From assembly GCA_023267275.1 (NCBI GenBank), contig JAHFNO010000006.1, positions 9,519 through 73,518 on the forward strand: a stretch of DNA of 64,000 bases, written 5' to 3'. The position numbers were made by a program, and so were the translations under genes. The notes below the pieces were generated by a model. The model made no database searches. It saw only the letters and a program-made list of their open reading frames with translations, and was not told the origin of the DNA. Of the stretch, positions 12,925 through 58,578 are shown one piece after another (within the stretch, counting starts at the first letter, position 1; each line of letters begins with the position of its first letter). Source of the stretch: Candidatus Nomurabacteria bacterium. GTDB lineage: Bacteria; Patescibacteriota; Minisyncoccia; Phycocordibacterales; UBA9973.

Positions 12925-13431
12925 TTATGTTCTTGTGTCTCGATATCGAATAACAATGTGTCGTTTCATTCCATCACCCGCTGATTCGGTGTACACATCA
13001 GGGACTTCTCCGAGGAACTCGTGAATGATGCGGCGTTCGTGTGGAGGCATTGGGTCGAGATCAACACTTGATTTAAAATACCGTGCGCGTTCTGCCATCA
13101 TGTGTGCGATGGTTTTTAAATTGTCGATTTTCTTTTTCTCAACATTATTTGCATCAATCACCACACGTGGTCGAACTGTTTCTTCACGCATGATTTGTTC
13201 AACAACTTTTGTTGCCAAGTGATTGAGTGCAGTGAGTGCTTCACCATCACGATTTGAAAGAAGGCGAGTGTGCGGGGAAGTAATAGAAAACCAAATAGTA
13301 TTCATTTTCTCATCATACGAAACAGTAACATCAGCCTCAGTAAAACCGAGTTGAGCAAGCATGCCTTTTATATATGTATGTATTTGGTCGTGTTTCATAG
13401 CGTATATCTCAAATCCTATATTTTGTATCAA
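12925..13431 (-). CDS. jag: RNA-binding protein Jag/KhpB (KH + R3H domains)
   Basis: R3H motif ERRIIHEFL; conserved position downstream of yidC. Confidence 0.75.
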   Translation of the reverse strand: MIQNIGFEIYAMKHDQIHTYIKGMLAQLGFTEADVTVSYDEKMNTIWFSITSPHTRLLSNRDGEALTALNHLATKVVEQIMREETVRPRVVIDANNVEKKKIDNLKTIAHMMAERARYFKSSVDLDPMPPHERRIIHEFLGEVPDVYTESAGDGMKRHIVIRYRDTRT

Positions 13432-40042: not shown

Positions 40043-40089
40043 TCCTAAAAGCCCTTATTCGGTTGTCACTTGACAACCGAATAAGGGCT
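40043..40089. terminator. strong intrinsic terminator hairpin after polA
   Basis: AAAGCCCTTATTCGGTTGTCA-CTT-GACAACCGAATAAGGGCTTT: 21-bp perfect stem with an A/T-flanked bidirectional design. Confidence 0.75.
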
Positions 40090-40105
40090 TTGATATTATT
40101 AGCTG

Positions 40106-44754: not shown

Positions 44755-45885
44755 ATGCAACAAATATTTAAAGCAGGTATATATAGACAACAACTGGAAT
44801 ACAAGAGTTTCAGCCCTTTTCCTATCAATAAACAATTTGAGTGGACTGATAAGAAAATAAATATGCTTTCAGATGAGGCTATGCGTCTTTTGGGTGAACT
44901 TAATGCTTATTCCACACTCGTTCCTGATGTGAATTATTTTATAAAAATGCACATCGCAAAAGAAGCGACGAAATCAAGCCGAATTGAAGGTACAAAAACA
45001 AATATCGATGAAGTGCTTCTTTCTAAAGAAGATGTTGATCCTGAACGACGAGATGATTGGAAGGAGGTGCATAATTATATTGTAGCGATGAATCAGGCAA
45101 TAAAAGAACTCTCAACCCTACCACTTTCAATGCGTCTTTTGAAAAACGCTCATAAAATACTTTTAACACACGTGCGCGGAGAGCACAAAACCCCAGGGGA
45201 GATTCGCATCAGTCAAAATTGGATAGGTGGTTCAAGTCTAAAAGACGCGTTCTTTATACCACCTCATCCAAGTGAAGTTGGAGAACTTATTTCTGATCTT
45301 GAAAAATTTTGGCACAACAGAAATCTTGAAATTCCATTCCTAATAAAAATGGCAATAAGTCATTATCAGTTTGAGACAATTCACCCGTTCCTAGATGGCA
45401 ACGGAAGAATAGGACGACTGCTCATTACTTTGCAGTTAGTTGATAAAAAGATACTCCAGAGACCGACCTTGTATCTTTCCGATTTTTTTGAAAGAAACAA
45501 AGGTTCGTATTATGATTCGCTGACCCTTGTTCGTTCTTCTAACAATATAGAGCAATGGATTAAATTTTTTCTTTCAGGTGTAATTGAAACAGCCCATAAG
45601 GGTAAGGAAACATTTGAAAAAATAATCGTATTGCGCCAAAAATATGAGCAAAAAATCATGAAATTGGGTCGTCGAGCCGAACTCGGACAGCGGTTGCTAA
45701 TTAAACTCTTTTCTCAACCGATATTAAATGTAAATCAGATTGCAAAGGAATTGGATATTACATTTCCTACAGCATCGTCGCTTGTGGACGAGTTTGAGCA
45801 AAAAGGCATTCTAAAGGAAGTTACCGGTTTTTCAAGAAACCGTTCTTTTGAGTTGTTTGAGTATGTTGAATTGTTTAGGAATTAA
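44755..45885 (+). CDS. fic: Fic/DOC family protein (AMPylation-type motif)
   Basis: Fic motif [12 protein letters not shown]; C-terminal winged-helix-like region. Confidence 0.85.
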
Positions 45886-45889
45886 TTAT

Positions 45890-48800
45890 ATGAACCCCCT
45901 CAACGAAAAAAACATAGCGGAAGAATCCCTCATCGACTGGCTGAAAGGCGAGGGGTATGAGTATGTAAAAGGTACAGATATCGCCCCGGGGCAGCCTCGT
46001 GCGGAGCGCGAGGATTTCCGGGGTGTGGTTTTAAAAGACCGCCTGCTTGGAGCTATTCGTAGGATCAATCCACAACTGCCTGCTGAACAGGCGGAACAAG
46101 TTGTTGTCGATATTGCCTCGTATCACAATGCTGATTTAATGCTCGGAAACAAGGAGATGTTTTCTTTTATTACAGAAGGAGTAAAAAGGACTTGGCAAGA
46201 ACAAGGAAATGAAAAAACAGAAATAGTAAAGTTGATTGATTTCGAGAATAAAGATGCGAATGAGTTCCTTGTAGTCAATCAATTTACGGTGCAGGGGGTT
46301 GACTCACTCGGTCGTCCCGATGTCGTTATTTTCATAAATGGATTGCCACTTGCGGTGTTCGAGCTGAAGAGCCCGGTACGACAAACCGCTGATATCCGTG
46401 AGGCATACAGAGATATTGAGGATTACAAAAAAGAAATACCGAAACTTTTTTTCTACAACCAGATTGTAGCGATTTCGGATTTATTCCACGCGCATCATGG
46501 AACGATCTCATCTTCGTGGGAACGTTATGGCACATGGAAGGGAATAAAAAATGAAACTGATGTTCCGAAAGATACAGAGGAACTCGAAGTGTTATTGAAA
46601 GGGCTTTTCAATAAGGAGCGGCTTTTGGATGTGATCGAAAACTTTATTGTTTTTGAAGCAAGTGGTGATGGTGATGCCGTAACATATACAAAAAAGATGT
46701 GTTTGTATCATCAGTATTATGGTGTCAATAAAACAATTGAGAGTACGATTCGCTCAGTTCTCGGCAAGCAAGATAGAAAAATCGGCGTATTTTGGCACAC
46801 ACAAGGATCAGGCAAATCGCTCTCAATGGTTTTTTATGTGAACAAAACAAAAAATATACCTGAGCTCAAAAGTCCGGCGTATGTGTTTTTGACTGATCGT
46901 GAAGATTTAGACGACCAGTTGTTTAAGACATTCAATCACACCGGATATGGAACTCTAGCCAAGAAGGCCTCAAGCATCAAAGATTTGCGCAGTCGACTTA
47001 CGTATATTGGCGGGGAACTTATTTTCACGACAATTCAAAAGTTTCAAGAAGATCCTGACGCGCATGAGGCCTTGAGTTTGCGCGAGAACATTATTGTTTT
47101 GGCCGACGAAGCGCACCGCACGCAGTATAGCAATCTGGCAGGCAATGTTCGTCTTGCACTGCCGAATGCGAGTTTTTTGGGAGTCACAGGTACGCCGATT
47201 GCTCGGAATGACAAAGATACAGTACGGGTGTTTGGCCCAGTTGTGAGTTCGTATAAGATCAGTCAATCAGTCAAAGACAAATCAACCGTGCCAATTTATT
47301 ACGAGGGGCGGCTTGTGCCACTCCATCTCGCTGATCAATTAATCGACAGCAAATTCGACGCGGTTCTCGGTGAAGTTGTGCCGGATGATAACGCACGAAT
47401 GCGTAAGGAGTATGCAGTGCTTGAGGAAGTCGTGGGCGCACCGAGCCGAATAGAGAAAATCGCACAGGATGTCATACATCATTTTAATAATCATCCAATT
47501 GAAGGTAAGGCCATGATTGTGACGATGAGCCGCCGAATCGCGGTGCTTATGTATGAGGCCATCCAAAAGATACCTAGTGTTCCAGAAGTGGCAGTCGTGA
47601 TTTCAAACAACGATGAATATAGTTCAAGAATTCAAAAGGAACATAATATAAAAACTTTAGAGCGAAGGTTTAAAGATGACAAAGATCCGCTCAAAATCGC
47701 CATTCTTTGTGATATGTGGCTCACCGGTTTTGACGTTCCGTGTATGCATACACTGTATCTCGATAAGCCTCTCAAAAATCATGGCTTGATGCAGGCGATA
47801 GCTCGCGTGAATCGAGTGTATAAAGACAAGCCAGGAGGTTTGGTTGTGGACTATATTGGTATTGCAGAGAATTTGAAAAAAGCACTTGCGTGGTATGACT
47901 CCGACATACAAAATGATGCGCTTGTTCCTATTTCCGAAGTTGTAGAGCAAATGAATATTCTCCGTGATCAAGTCACCAAATTTTTCGGGAAACTCGACTA
48001 TACTGCATGGAAGAAACTAAAAGGTATTGAGCTTGTCACAATTATGCAGGCAGGAATGAATGAGGTCATCACTCAAGGTGGCATATTAAATGACGAACAG
48101 AAGATGAAATACATGGGTACAGTTTCTAAGCTTTCAAAATTACACGCACTTGTAATGCCGGGGGATGAAGCTATGAAAATAATATCGGATCTCCAATTTT
48201 TTCAGGCTATACGAGAGGCAATTCGCAAACAAACTGTTTTGCCGCATGCGATATTCCCTGAAGAAACGGAAAGCGCGATTCGTAGCCTGATGCATAATTC
48301 AATTCAGGCTGAGGGCATCGTTGATCTTTTTAGCGTCCCAGGAGAAGAGAAGAAAAGTATTTCGATATTTGATGAGAAGTTTATTGAAGGTATCCGAAAA
48401 TCACACTACCAGAATTTTGCAGTCGATTCTGTGCGAAAATTGCTCGATCAGGAAATACGATCACGAATGCGATTGAATAATGCTCGATACGAAACAATGC
48501 TCTCGCTTCTTGAGGGTTTGATTGAAAAATATGAGAACAATGTAATTAGTTCTGCTGAAATTATAAAGCAGTTGCTTGAAATTGCAGATGGTATTAAAAA
48601 GCTAGATCAAGAAAGTAAGGAAACAGGACTCTCGAATGAAGAAATTGTTTTTTATGATTCTTTAGCCACCGACCCTGATCTAAAAAAAGCCGGAATTGAT
48701 ATTAAAGAATTTGTAAAGGAATTAACAAGGCGTATTCGACGTGATTTGGCAATCGATTGGACAAACAATGAAACAATCAAAGCTCGTATTCGTCAGAATG

Positions 48801-48919
48801 TGAGATTACTTTTATTACAAAAAGGGATTGTTGAGGAGATGCAGACGAAGCGACTAATTGAGTCGATATATCAAGAGACAGTAAGAGTATATAGAGGATT
48901 TTTACCTACAGTCTTATAA
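45890..48919 (+). CDS. hsdR: type I restriction enzyme R subunit HsdR
   Basis: N-terminal nuclease region; SF2 helicase motifs (GSGKS-like P-loop, DEAH-box VLADEAHRTQY); ~1010 aa. Confidence 0.85.
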   Translation: MNPLNEKNIAEESLIDWLKGEGYEYVKGTDIAPGQPRAEREDFRGVVLKDRLLGAIRRINPQLPAEQAEQVVVDIASYHNADLMLGNKEMFSFITEGVKRTWQEQGNEKTEIVKLIDFENKDANEFLVVNQFTVQGVDSLGRPDVVIFINGLPLAVFELKSPVRQTADIREAYRDIEDYKKEIPKLFFYNQIVAISDLFHAHHGTISSSWERYGTWKGIKNETDVPKDTEELEVLLKGLFNKERLLDVIENFIVFEASGDGDAVTYTKKMCLYHQYYGVNKTIESTIRSVLGKQDRKIGVFWHTQGSGKSLSMVFYVNKTKNIPELKSPAYVFLTDREDLDDQLFKTFNHTGYGTLAKKASSIKDLRSRLTYIGGELIFTTIQKFQEDPDAHEALSLRENIIVLADEAHRTQYSNLAGNVRLALPNASFLGVTGTPIARNDKDTVRVFGPVVSSYKISQSVKDKSTVPIYYEGRLVPLHLADQLIDSKFDAVLGEVVPDDNARMRKEYAVLEEVVGAPSRIEKIAQDVIHHFNNHPIEGKAMIVTMSRRIAVLMYEAIQKIPSVPEVAVVISNNDEYSSRIQKEHNIKTLERRFKDDKDPLKIAILCDMWLTGFDVPCMHTLYLDKPLKNHGLMQAIARVNRVYKDKPGGLVVDYIGIAENLKKALAWYDSDIQNDALVPISEVVEQMNILRDQVTKFFGKLDYTAWKKLKGIELVTIMQAGMNEVITQGGILNDEQKMKYMGTVSKLSKLHALVMPGDEAMKIISDLQFFQAIREAIRKQTVLPHAIFPEETESAIRSLMHNSIQAEGIVDLFSVPGEEKKSISIFDEKFIEGIRKSHYQNFAVDSVRKLLDQEIRSRMRLNNARYETMLSLLEGLIEKYENNVISSAEIIKQLLEIADGIKKLDQESKETGLSNEEIVFYDSLATDPDLKKAGIDIKEFVKELTRRIRRDLAIDWTNNETIKARIRQNVRLLLLQKGIVEEMQTKRLIESIYQETVRVYRGFLPTVL

Positions 48920-48932
48920 AATGAGGGAAGGG

Positions 48933-48988
48933 TATACCCGCACACTTCCTTTTTTGACCCTTTCCAAAAAGGAAGTGTGCGGGTATAC
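48933..48988. repeat. 23-bp perfect palindrome (arms equal to the inverted repeats flanking the GIY-YIG gene)
   Basis: GTATACCCGCACACTTCCTTTTT-N10-AAAAAGGAAGTGTGCGGGTATAC; the core ACCCGCACACTT(C/A)CTTTTT also flanks 50240-50494. Confidence 0.8.
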
Positions 48989-48995
48989 TTCGCGT

Positions 48996-49481
48996 ATGGA
49001 TCCTATCGAAACACAAAAAAACCCAGGACTTTCTGTGCACCAGATACTGGCTCAAGGGTACTTGATCTACCTCGCTGCTATCGTGGTTGGGTTTGGTGCA
49101 AGCTATCTTTGGCCAGAAACACTCTCATTTCCGTTCGAATCTCCATTTGGTTTTGTGTTGATTGTGCTTGGCACACTCGTAATCTACTGGGCGCAGTATG
49201 CGACAGGTTCTACTTCGGCAAAGCGAAATATACAGGAAGCAGTCATTACCAAGGAACATTTTTTTGTTGGACCGTACAAATATTCTCGTTCACCAACACA
49301 GTACGGACTATTCTTGATGGCGTTTGGACTCGCACTTTTGTACGGGTCACTCTATATGACAATCACTACTGCAATCGCGCTTCTTGTTGGAAAATTCTTT
49401 ATCATCCCGCATGAAGAAAAAAATTTGGCACGCCGATACGGACAGCCCTATTTGGAATATAAAAAAGAAGTTAGACTCTAA
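48996..49481 (+). CDS. isoprenylcysteine carboxyl methyltransferase / PEMT-family membrane methyltransferase
   Basis: GPYKYSRSPTQYGLF ... IIPHEEKNLARRYGQPYLEYKKEV family signature. The Met at 48996 is used because the ORF-track start at 48921 overlaps the palindrome. Confidence 0.65.
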   Translation: MDPIETQKNPGLSVHQILAQGYLIYLAAIVVGFGASYLWPETLSFPFESPFGFVLIVLGTLVIYWAQYATGSTSAKRNIQEAVITKEHFFVGPYKYSRSPTQYGLFLMAFGLALLYGSLYMTITTAIALLVGKFFIIPHEEKNLARRYGQPYLEYKKEVRL

Positions 49482-49487
49482 TTTGTT

Positions 49488-50210
49488 ATGCTCACTGTTC
49501 TTGTAGGAAATGACACTGGAAAACGAGCCAAGCGACTCGATGTACTTCTCGCGCCAGCACAAAAAAGTGGCGGGGATATTCAAGTATTCAGCGACGTAAA
49601 TTTTGATGCAACTATTTTTCGTACGATAGCAGAAAGTATGTCGCTCTTTGGCGGAACAAGTACGGTAATCCTTTCTGGTGTTGGTGATGTTGCAGAGCTT
49701 CGCGACTCGCTCGAAAAAATATTGCCGATACTTTCTGAATCACCACACACATTTATTGTTTCCGAAACAAGTTTGCTCGCTCCTTTTTTGAAGAAGGTTC
49801 AATCAAGTGGGGGAGCGATAGAAAAATTTGAACTTGCAGAAAAAATAAAAAAAGGAGAAGCGTTCAATTCATTTCTTTTGACCGATGCATTTTCCGAACG
49901 GAAGCGTTCTGTTGCGTGGCCACTCTATCGTAAAGCGATTGATCTTGGTGTTGAACCGCGTGAACTCGCCGGCAAAATTTTTTGGGCAACAAAAAATATG
50001 CTTCTCGCAAAAAAAACTACTGGAGCAAGTGAGTCTGGTTTAAATCCATTTGTGTATTCAAAAGCAAAACTTGGGAGTAAAAATTTTTCTGATGCAGAGC
50101 TCGAAAAAATTGCGACCGAGCTCACCATTCTTTTTCATGAATCAATGTTTTCTTCCGTAGAATTTGAACCAGCACTCGAAGCATTTATTTTGCGCGTGCT
50201 CGCAAAATAA
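49488..50210 (+). CDS. holA: DNA polymerase III delta subunit-like (HolA-like, short)
   Basis: Weak clamp-loader delta pattern only: an N-terminal Rossmann-like half and a C-terminal helical domain. Confidence 0.4.
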   Translation: MLTVLVGNDTGKRAKRLDVLLAPAQKSGGDIQVFSDVNFDATIFRTIAESMSLFGGTSTVILSGVGDVAELRDSLEKILPILSESPHTFIVSETSLLAPFLKKVQSSGGAIEKFELAEKIKKGEAFNSFLLTDAFSERKRSVAWPLYRKAIDLGVEPRELAGKIFWATKNMLLAKKTTGASESGLNPFVYSKAKLGSKNFSDAELEKIATELTILFHESMFSSVEFEPALEAFILRVLAK

Positions 50211-50513
50211 ACCCGCACACTTACTTTTTTATTACTCTCATGTTTTATGTATATGTTTTGAAAAGTAAAAAAGATGAAGAATTGTACATTGGTTCAACCA
50301 ATGATCTTAAGCGTAGAATAAAAGAACATGAGAGTGGAGAGAGTTTTTCAACAAAGCTGAGGAGACCTTTTGATTTAATTTATTACGAAGCATATAAAGA
50401 TGAGAAGGACGCAAGAAAGAGAGAGTCATCATTGAAACTTCGTGGAAGGTCTCGTTTTCATTTAATGCAAAGATTAAAAAACTCTCTCCTATAAAAAAGT
50501 AAGTGTGCGGGTA
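50211..50513 (+). mobile_element. GIY-YIG gene bracketed by perfect 20-bp inverted repeats (putative mini mobile element)
   Basis: Left inverted repeat ACCCGCACACTTACTTTTTT at 50211-50230; its exact reverse complement at 50494-50513; the CDS between them is GIY-YIG. Confidence 0.55.
50240..50494 (+). CDS. GIY-YIG (URI-domain) nuclease family protein, 84 aa
   Basis: MFYVYVLKSKKDEELYIGSTNDLKRRIKEHESGE ... matches the short stand-alone GIY-YIG family. Confidence 0.8.
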   Translation: MFYVYVLKSKKDEELYIGSTNDLKRRIKEHESGESFSTKLRRPFDLIYYEAYKDEKDARKRESSLKLRGRSRFHLMQRLKNSLL

Positions 50514-50899
50514 AAAAAAGAGCCTGCGATATATTTCCGAAACTCAGAAACATGTCGCAGGCTCTTTGATATTCGCACTAGCCTTTAGCTGGAGAATGTT
50601 ATTCTCCTTTTTGTTTTGTAAAGAATAGAACAAAGAGTGAGTAGTAATTTTTCAACTGATCAATTTTTTATAATAGCCACTTACTTCTATTATTGAAATC
50701 GTATCTATGAAGTTGAAAGCTCTTTGCGAAATGTGGTTGTAGTATTTGATGTATGTCCCGAAGTGGGTAACTTGAATGCTACAGTACTCCGCTATTTCTG
50801 CTTGCGTCTATTATATCGCATCAAAGAAGAACAAAAGGTGGATAAATAAAATTCTTGTGGATAACTTATTCGTTCGCCACAGCGAGTGCTATTAAACCC

Positions 50900-52193: not shown

Positions 52194-52266
52194 CCGCCCG
52201 TAGCTCAGCTGGTAGAGCAGCTCCCTTTTAAGGAGAGGGTCGCAGGTTCGATTCCTGCCGGGCGGA
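52194..52266 (+). tRNA. tRNA-Lys (anticodon UUU)
   Basis: Manual fold: acceptor CCGCCCG/CGGGCGG, D-loop AGCTGGTA, anticodon loop CTTTTAA, T-arm GCAGG-TTCGATT-CCTGC, discriminator A. No CCA is encoded. Confidence 0.85.
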
Positions 52267-52373
52267 CACTTACAAAAATGAGCTCGACTTTTAGGTCGAG
52301 CCATTTTTGTGTGTCCGCCCGGAGAAAGCCAACTTCTCATTCAGCAGAATGACTCTTGGAGTAAGGCTTTCGT

Positions 52374-58191: not shown

Positions 58192-58263
58192 GATCCTGTC
58201 GTTCAACGGATAGGACACTCCCCTGCGAAGGGAGAAATGCAGGTTCGATTCCTGCCAGGATCA
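58192..58263 (+). tRNA. tRNA with anticodon GCG (reads Arg codon CGC), variable loop 4 nt
   Basis: Manual fold: acceptor GATCCTG/CAGGATC, D-arm GTTC-AACGGATA-GGAC, anticodon stem CTCCC/GGGAG with loop CTGCGAA, T-arm GCAGG-TTCGATT-CCTGC, discriminator A. Confidence 0.65.
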
Positions 58264-58334
58264 CAAAAAGAAAAAGCACCCATTAGGGTGTTTTTTCTTT
58301 TTGTGTCCTGAGCGAGCCAACTGTTTGGCTCGCG

Positions 58335-58424: not shown

Positions 58425-58578
58425 CAGGATCACCAAGTCGTGACTACTCACGAGGAGCTTAAAATGCTCTAAATATAGCCAAATCAAAAAACTACCCGAT
58501 TGGGTAGTTTTTTGATTTGGCTATTACTGTTTATTTGCGAGAGAAGTAAATTCAAACCCCTGAGGGCTATGACATCCT

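Follow-up and report, generated by a model that had tools for sequence, protein, structure and literature searches.

The described system that lies closest to the locus analysed here is that of SsnA of Neisseria meningitidis, a site-specific single-stranded DNA nuclease of 94 amino acids (aa) that consists of a single GIY-YIG domain (cd10448; Chenal et al. 2025, Nat Commun, PMC11893778). It binds a hairpin repeat termed NTS, and 42% of the homologous genes are flanked on both sides by SRM repeats (PMC11893778). The same authors noted a layout like that of insertion sequences (IS) and of REP/RAYT systems, without showing mobility (PMC11893778), while the SRMs correspond to REPs with a CGTC tag that Di Nocera et al. 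described in 2013 and for which no dedicated enzyme had been known (PMC3733652). REP/RAYT systems are themselves the next closest relatives of our locus. Here we analyse a 64-kb stretch of DNA from a Candidatus Nomurabacteria bacterium (hereafter, the window), in which a stand-alone GIY-YIG gene of 84 codons is enclosed by a perfect inverted repeat at 50211-50512, and in which the same repeat occurs without a gene as the palindrome at 48932-48988. We favour, with moderate confidence, the explanation that the unit at 50211-50512 belongs to a family of hairpin-bounded cassettes spread across Patescibacteria, in which a GIY-YIG nuclease is paired with its cognate hairpin repeat and which is mobile or gene-converting. 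This reading draws on direct observations: the association of gene and repeat, selection acting on the arms as well as their pairing, arm-to-arm boundaries, many genomic contexts, classes of gene-less elements, and differing cargo at an orthologous site.

The family shares with Ssn/SRM a small single-domain GIY-YIG protein (about 85-95 aa), a gene flanked on both sides by a hairpin-forming repeat that is also dispersed in the genome, repeat and protein variants that travel together, and an IS-resembling layout. Among the comparison loci that we fetched (labelled Lnnn; 80 from species-representative genomes, of which 76 were usable for core counts), flanking on both sides was seen in 45 of 76, and the window adds the solo copy. 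A layout in which the gene lies beside complete hairpins, as found next to rpsG in many genomes, recalls NTS-ssnA-NTS. In contrast to SRMs, the repeat described here has no CGTC/GTC single-stranded tag but a core ACCCSCACAC, and its stem measures 20-26 bp rather than 7-9 bp. In addition, about half of the loci have the gene within a single hairpin, whereas the Ssn gene lies between two complete hairpins; gene-less copies hold structured cargo in discrete size classes; and the hosts are Patescibacteria, with a low copy number. REP/RAYT systems likewise combine a nuclease gene that has inverted copies of a dispersed extragenic palindrome on either side with presumed recognition of folded single-stranded hairpins, no target-site duplication and gene-less copies at gene ends. 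Their enzyme, however, is an HUH Y1 protein related to IS200/IS605, whereas only a GIY-YIG domain was found here; the arms lack the GTAG tag of the REP definition (PMC3733652), and each arm makes up half a hairpin instead of a complete REP.

At the protein level, the window gene product is 36-44% identical to the products of GIY-YIG genes (94-97 aa) on replicons of Rhizobium, Sinorhizobium and Azospirillum, and these genes are flanked by canonical SRM/NTS-like repeats; the Azospirillum repeat agrees with 26 of the 28 NTS consensus positions, and its two deviations complement each other. Judging from sequence, the window cassette thus shares the logic of Ssn loci and homology with their proteins, while Ssn membership is not established. 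We also observed that on plasmid AZO_p3 of Azospirillum lipoferum (L083 1379-1890) a 97-aa Ssn-like gene and four NTS-like repeats lie between sufB and sufC, which belong to the Fe-S cluster assembly operon.

The cassette and the solo palindrome in the window

The cassette unit spans 50211-50512 (~302 bp) and consists of a perfect 22-nucleotide (nt) inverted repeat around the 84-codon open reading frame (ORF). The left arm, ACCCGCACACTTACTTTTTTAT (50211-50232, + strand), carries the conserved core ACCCGCACAC at its outer end; the right arm, ATAAAAAAGTAAGTGTGCGGGT (50491-50512, + strand), is its perfect reverse complement, and 258 nt separate the two. The original prediction placed 20-bp inverted repeats here. 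These are real and perfect, and the 20-mer ACCCGCACACTTACTTTTTT (start 50211) is part of the left arm, but the true repeat length is 22 nt. It had also been claimed correctly that the left repeat begins right after the stop codon of a holA-like gene (TAA, 50208-50210, with the arm following from 50211). The right-hand 20-mer, by contrast, had been put at 50494-50513, starting from the last base of the GIY-YIG stop codon, when it actually occupies 50493-50512 and starts from the second base; the full right arm overlaps this codon (50492-50494). A 19-mer core, ACCCGCACACTTMCTTTTT, has exactly four copies in the window, which are the two cassette arms and the two arms of the solo palindrome, compared with 0.08 copies expected from dinucleotide shuffles, of which 0 in 100 reached four. 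The core stretch within cassette arms and palindrome reads CCCGCACAC, and the cassette arms differ from those of the palindrome at one position (A versus C), a change compensated in the partner arm. Core-like 9-mers at 13268, 18417 and 57403 were taken as chance occurrences: they have no partner arm, and two of them overlap ORFs of at least 80 aa.

The stand-alone gene that had been predicted between the repeats was confirmed at 50240-50494 (+ strand, stop codon included). Its product matches Pfam GIY-YIG over residues 1-71 (E = 8e-19) and is a bare catalytic domain, the only other domain matches being to the clan relatives T5orf172 and MUG113. NCBIfam yielded no specific model; a match to a group I intron endonuclease model over residues 4-34 scored 24.7 bits against a cut-off of 56. 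More than 1294 homologues with 60-87% identity were found, mostly in Patescibacteria, and the best 120 (66-87% identity) are nearly all 83-90 aa long and come mostly from Patescibacteria metagenome-assembled genomes (MAGs). The family is also present in MAGs labelled Cloacimonadota, Elusimicrobia, Omnitrophota, WOR-1 and Clostridia. The catalytic-type residues Y3, Y5, Y16, G18, R26 and E50 are invariant across 30 homologues. When the gene was compared with that of L084, whose protein is 87% identical, identities of 0.83, 0.96 and 0.55 were obtained at the three codon positions, which indicates purifying selection on the GIY-YIG gene. The protein has the active-site residues expected of a GIY-YIG enzyme, and by analogy it would act as a nuclease on the repeat.

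The solo palindrome (48932-48988, 57 nt) lies between hsdR and a PEMT-like methyltransferase gene, 12 nt 3' of the hsdR stop codon and ~1.2 kb from the cassette. Its perfect 23-nt arms (48932-48954 and 48966-48988) enclose 11 nt, and with one mismatch allowed the arms grow to 26 nt and enclose 5 nt. The original prediction had found this palindrome, with the same core and arm length, but began it at 48933 and gave it a gap of 10 nt. As single-stranded DNA it is predicted to fold with a free energy (dG) of -28.5 kcal/mol (z = -9.4) on either strand. At the corresponding site L084 has only the right half-arm and loop, and DNA similarity to the window starts inside the loop (L084 1680-1720). A 574-aa gene upstream of the L084 half-arm has no counterpart anywhere in the window, and in the 5.1 kb of L084 that were examined nothing corresponds to the Fic and type I restriction-modification genes of the window (44755-48919). 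Since similarity starts in the loop and the upstream gene of L084 is unmatched, the palindrome falls on a break in synteny that borders the Fic/type I restriction-modification region. This single case is compatible with recombination at the hairpin, and the solo palindrome may represent the edge of an island that ends at a hairpin. The longest PEMT-like ORF (186 aa, 48921-49481) would run through the palindrome, and the same start was chosen by gene callers in L085 and L086; the L084 orthologue has 162 aa and starts 3' of the half-arm. Translation in the window probably begins at the ATG at 48996, with the longer ORF being an annotation trap.

The repeat core as a trait of the gene family

The core ACCC[G/C]CACAC was found within 250 nt of the gene in 65 of the 76 usable loci, mostly from Patescibacteria. 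Strict-core density reaches 3.3 per kb near the gene, compared with 0.067 per kb further off and 0.007 per kb in shuffled loci, so that copies away from the gene still occur at ~10 times the chance rate. Across loci the consensus extends to ACCC[G/C]CACAC[C/T][A/T]A, which together with a preceding (T/A) forms the base of the stem. In most loci the gene lies within an inverted repeat of 14-26 nt, where shuffled flanks give at most ~8-15 nt, and about 35-39 loci show the same nesting between a pair of arms that is seen in the window. The end of the left arm is usually no more than ~10 nt from the ATG, at times overlapping it, and the right arm usually starts within ~15 nt past the stop codon. 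The G and C variants of the core are tracked by the protein: alignment column 80 holds G in all 39 G-type loci and S in 18 of the 24 C-type loci, a pattern that fits co-evolution. The proposal that the repeats belong to an element family in which one member bears a gene is therefore supported, as the core flanks homologues in dozens of unrelated genomes and gene-less members exist; far from lacking flanking repeats, orthologues of the gene typically carry them. No Rfam family matches the repeat, the window giving only sub-threshold microRNA-like palindrome matches, and a literature search turned up no description of this Patescibacteria repeat family beyond the general Ssn paper. Over 17 related loci the sole Rfam match was a DUF3800-II RNA (RF02961, 64.5 bits; L006 5234-5297), which lies ~2 kb from the GIY-YIG gene and is unrelated to the hairpin elements.

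These counts bear directly on the simplest alternative, in which the repeats are nothing more than bidirectional intrinsic terminators, similar by coincidence, and the gene lies between two of them by chance. Both sites do lie at gene ends, and this genome does use long palindromic terminators: the long (near-)perfect palindromes at 40048-40091, 58262-58305 and 58475-58524, in which an A-tract pairs with a T-tract round a GC clamp, appear to be its usual bidirectional terminators and are laid out unlike the GIY-YIG repeat. In the latter, the T-run is inside the stem beside the loop, and the 3' flanks (CTTCGCG on the + strand, CCTTCCC on the - strand) provide no U-tract on either strand. A terminator scan called no intrinsic terminator at the repeats, and a 258-nt 'loop' would be unable to terminate transcription. 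Moreover, a separate bidirectional terminator-like hairpin, AAAGAGCCTGCGA...TCGCAGGCTCTTT (50517-50567), lies directly 3' of the right arm and outside the element, and an equivalent follows holA directly in L087. The idea of terminators unique to these two sites fails in the same way, with the core shared by many loci and no T-tract at the 3' side. Family-wide association of the core and the missing U-tract effectively refute the terminator reading, to which we attach next to no probability.

To look for constraint on the arms, we compared them within and between loci. The two arms of one locus are complementary at 0.69-1.0 over positions 2-21 and at background level (~0.25) beyond, whereas between loci arm identity is high mainly in the core, at positions 2-10. 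As the inner stem is complementary within each locus while only the core is kept between loci, the inner stem covaries. The two variable core positions switch in both arms at once, from G-C to C-G and from T-A to C-G, in 15 and 16 of 34 sequences, with at most one broken pair each. Between the window and L084 the arms are identical at 44 of 44 positions (22/22 in each arm), set against 55% identity at third codon positions and 43-69% in the flanks. On the strength of these sequence comparisons, the arms are under purifying selection, being conserved above synonymous sites, and selection on both the arms and their pairing is demonstrated. In the elements of L003, L005, L006, L021 and L042 we noted a recurrent A-G mismatch at core position 5, with CCCGAACAC opposite GTGTGCGGG; it occurs in several rpsG-adjacent elements, has a mirrored form in L006 and L008, and may give the hairpin polarity.

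The cassette interior (50233-50490, + strand) is predicted to form two long-range helices inside the closing stem, at 50234-50335 (which contains the start codon) and 50336-50489, giving a Y shape. The interior alone folds with z = -4.1, the same topology is predicted for L084 (z = -3.5), and about half of the nested homologues have a similar two-branch minimum free energy topology. A family-wide RNAalifold consensus recovered the closing stem only and not the internal Y helices of the coding cassette, for which the Y fold is tentative.

Such folds raise the question of a role at the RNA level. Here the arms, paired in the transcript around the whole ORF, would govern the processing, stability or translational silencing of the nuclease mRNA, for instance by offering RNase III a 22-bp stem to cleave or by sequestering the start codon, with solo hairpins directly 3' of stop codons acting as REP-like stabilisers of mRNA 3' ends. 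On this view, gene and repeat would be linked by regulation and not by substrate recognition. The whole element is predicted to fold as RNA at -100.5 kcal/mol (z = -9.7) with the start codon in a helix, and the arms covary as base pairs. Elements often start 0-20 nt past a stop codon that belongs to an upstream gene of the same orientation (27 of 38 loci have their upstream neighbour on the same strand), and no promoter-like site was called by a scan of the cassette, which is therefore probably co-transcribed with holA. Pairing alone, however, does not explain a near-invariant 10-nt core across phyla, nor does cis-regulation explain arm-to-arm duplication units, gene-less elements with the same core that occur in both orientations at one site, or a core that follows the gene into unrelated contexts; the missing Rfam family match also speaks against it. 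We consider regulation in RNA unlikely as the full explanation, and such a role may coexist with the cassette reading rather than exclude it.

Contexts, cargo classes and boundaries

The cassettes behave as discrete units. In L018, two paralogous copies 2.1 kb apart show ~85% homology exactly from arm to arm, while their flanks are unrelated. The 72 ORFs that neighbour nested cassettes fall into 67 clusters, implying that the cassette is placed differently in nearly every genome. Even homologues that are 77-87% identical occupy four contexts, namely between holA and DsbB, between genes of 870 aa and 71 aa, between a 534-aa gene and a transketolase-like gene, and between the fusA side and rpsG. 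Cassettes often abut a stop codon, with TAA running straight into ACCCGC, as in the window, L095 and the rpsG sites. L084 is syntenic with the window and has the same gene order (PEMT-holA-GIY-DsbB). A metagenome scan with the holA-like protein returned only L087 (47% identical), in which the holA stop codon is followed by 17 nt and a terminator hairpin, without a cassette. The comparison suggested by the original prediction, of cassette presence or absence between holA and the terminator, therefore gave a partial answer, with the cassette present in L084 and absent from L087, the latter being too distant to tell insertion from deletion.

If the arms were terminal inverted repeats bound as duplex DNA by a GIY-YIG transposase, the whole would be an IS, and its gene-less relatives would be miniature inverted-repeat elements (MITEs) mobilised in trans. 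Inverted repeats with conserved tips, autonomous and shorter non-autonomous forms and the many insertion contexts all accord with this, and the architecture was itself compared to an IS by Chenal et al. (PMC11893778). Yet no direct repeats that could be target-site duplications flank 35 nested cassettes or the L018 paralogues, and no transposase domain was found. The recurrent right flank 'TTTACC' was considered as a duplication and rejected: it is the end of rpsG (TGG TAA A) and marks a conserved orthologous site. Furthermore, inner arm positions are unconserved between loci yet complementary within each locus, which points to folding rather than to duplex protein-binding sites, and the internal helices of the 72-nt gene-less class covary. 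We know of no transposase chemistry in the GIY-YIG fold. The label of a miniature inverted-repeat element therefore holds in so far as there is an element family, but, given that no target-site duplication was found, the classical DDE-transposon MITE is probably the wrong model, and an IS/MITE origin of the cassettes seems improbable to us. The logic of Ssn/SRM or REP/RAYT fits the elements better.

Gene-less arm pairs fall into spacing classes of about 19-30, 60-62, 97-100 and 124-132 nt. L009, L019, L040, L071 and L078 contain short hairpins that share the core but lack a gene. Elements with a spacing of 60-62 nt measure 71-73 nt and combine a long stem with two small hairpins in a Y shape; double compensatory changes were seen in 15 of 29 pairs and almost none is broken, and either orientation of these 71-73-nt elements can be found at one and the same site. 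Many Paceibacteria-type genomes have the GIY-YIG gene between rpsG and fusA, convergent to rpsG. The hairpin elements there follow the rpsG stop codon without a gap, identical arms enclose different cargo in different genomes, and truncated tandem copies occur. This rpsG-type layout (gene beside complete hairpins) and the window layout (gene inside one hairpin) are the two common forms. At the same site in L089 (1-3756), L001, L003-L006, L009-L015, L021 and L029, a GIY-YIG gene, hairpin elements and a 162-aa ORF together interrupt the normally contiguous str operon, with the GIY-YIG gene antisense to the operon. Near-identical 109-nt gene-less elements flank GIY-YIG genes in MAGs labelled Cloacimonadota (L034 1766-2267) and Clostridia (L048 3305-3413), which suggests either recent cross-phylum transfer or a binning error.

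The existence of gene-less copies also invites comparison with classical homing. GIY-YIG homing genes of the I-TevI type, which are intron-encoded or free-standing in phage, are known in both filled and empty states, and their characterised endonucleases are ~245 aa long and require a C-terminal DNA-binding domain. Applied to our locus, homing would have a double-strand endonuclease with the intact palindrome as its site, so that the gene sits in its own disrupted target and the solo palindrome is an uninvaded site. The shared GIY-YIG domain, the position of the gene exactly between the halves of a sequence that also exists uninterrupted, and the absence of target-site duplication are all as such a model would have them. 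The 84-aa protein, though, is a bare catalytic domain with no DNA-binding domain, there is no intron context and no intron RNA family was matched, and in many loci the gene lies beside complete hairpins and not inside one. The non-coding cargo classes of 60, 100 and 127 nt and the Y-shaped elements are left without explanation. Classical homing thus appears a little less likely still than an account in terms of RNA alone.

Upstream of the cassette in the window are genes for a type I restriction R subunit, the PEMT-like methyltransferase and the holA-like protein (49488-50210, + strand; C-terminal domain of DNA polymerase III delta), the stop codon of the last abutting the left arm; downstream, the terminator-like hairpin is followed by convergent DsbB-like and thioredoxin-like genes. 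Further along, ARAGORN called a tRNA-Stop with anticodon TTA at 52194-52267 (+ strand). In the Rfam tRNA alignment (68.8 bits) the anticodon loop CUUUUAA places the anticodon at UUU, and the T-arm is like that of bacterial tRNA-Lys; a UAA-suppressor tRNA was accordingly rejected in favour of a mis-registered tRNA-Lys(UUU) as most likely. Within 52258-52322, the 3' acceptor strand of this tRNA and the next bases (CCGGGCGGACACTTACAAA) recur inverted ~27 nt downstream, enclosing a small hairpin, GAGCTCGAC...GTCGAGC, and these arms differ from the GIY-YIG repeat core.

A proposed mechanism and its implications

How might a hairpin-bounded cassette spread? By analogy with Ssn and NTS, we propose that the nuclease would recognise the folded repeat in single-stranded DNA, which could be exposed on the lagging-strand template, in repair intermediates or in incoming transforming DNA; recognition of the palindrome by the protein had been offered in the original prediction as an alternative to the element family. 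It would read the conserved base of the stem and cut beside it, and repair of the break by recombination with another copy would then copy or swap the content between the arms. Repair-templated copying of this kind could spread the cassette with its gene as well as the derivatives that lack one, and would leave no target-site duplication. Although binding, single-strand specificity, cleavage position and repair-mediated spread are drawn here from analogy, the mechanism would account jointly for the arm-to-arm boundaries, the lack of target-site duplications, the covarying stems, the classes and turnover of cargo, and the conservation of the arms.

Several points weigh against the nuclease-and-hairpin cassette reading that we prefer. 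GIY-YIG enzymes are hydrolytic and, to our knowledge, have no strand-transfer activity, so any transposition step would need host functions. With two elements per 64 kb, copy number in the window is low, and the association between protein residue and core variant may be mere co-inheritance. A conservation of 60-87% in the protein across orders is unusual for a purely selfish nuclease, and a host function could be involved. The published SRM pattern, HGTCWYN(0-2)YYVSBRHN(0-5)WNVSBRGN(0-2)RNCYNB, had 0 matches in the window; across the homologous loci (426 kb) it matched 3 times, always more than 300 nt from the gene (80 loci). As positive controls, L081 and L083 gave flanking copies, and L082 gave one match 200 nt upstream, its gene-adjacent copies fitting by eye but missing the pattern.

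The protein itself is also as near to YazA/UPF0213 (49 bits) as to the SRM-flanked Ssn-like proteins (50 bits), and it is missing the Ssn-like GFxxKY insert and C-terminal extension. In BLASTP it scored 50.4, 44.7 and 43.5 bits against the SRM-flanked Rhizobium, Sinorhizobium and Azospirillum proteins and 48.9 bits against YazA (UPF0213), and with the A1 profile YazA scored 50.9 and the SRM-flanked proteins 43.5-45.6. Its best solved-structure match is the UPF0213 protein BH0048, the matches being to 1zg2 (E = 1.3e-9) and 1ywl (E = 5e-7). UPF0213 proteins (cd10456; E. coli YhbQ, B. subtilis YazA, PDB 1zg2 and 1ywl) resemble the window protein in size and fold, and YazA is 40% identical and shares an xTKxRRPxxL motif. 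The two differ in their genomic setting, however: yazA is an ordinary operon gene that overlaps trmNF and rsmI, and a cognate repeat is known only for the window family.

A more far-reaching version of the cassette reading would see the ~300-bp arm-gene-arm unit as an autonomous 'hairpin-homing' mobile element, a new mechanistic class and among the smallest elements known, which cuts its own folded hairpin in single-stranded DNA, is copied into the loop by repair and swaps structured non-coding cargo. We regard this as doubtful, if clearly less so than the rival explanations. Were it true, dispersed, recombination-prone hairpins would be present in Patescibacteria and their gene-transfer partners, marking synteny breakpoints such as that at 48932-48988.

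In summary, the cassette family is a variant of the Ssn/SRM-like, REP/RAYT-like kind, and we do not regard it as a system of a categorically new sort. In Patescibacteria, the commonest 'hypothetical nuclease' genes include small stand-alone GIY-YIG genes, and the latter are here tied to a conserved hairpin that the published SRM search pattern cannot detect. The principle linking Ssn proteins to hairpin repeats, which was biochemically characterised only in 2025, is thereby extended to another protein clade, a longer untagged repeat and a gene-in-loop layout. If the protein is a single-stranded DNA nuclease with specificity for the ACCCSCACAC stem base, it would add to the toolbox proposed by Chenal et al., and if the cassette is truly mobile, it would provide a compact, testable system for the spread of REP-like hairpins and nucleases. 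In ultra-small genomes, these hairpins can be flagged as likely recombination points and as annotation traps.

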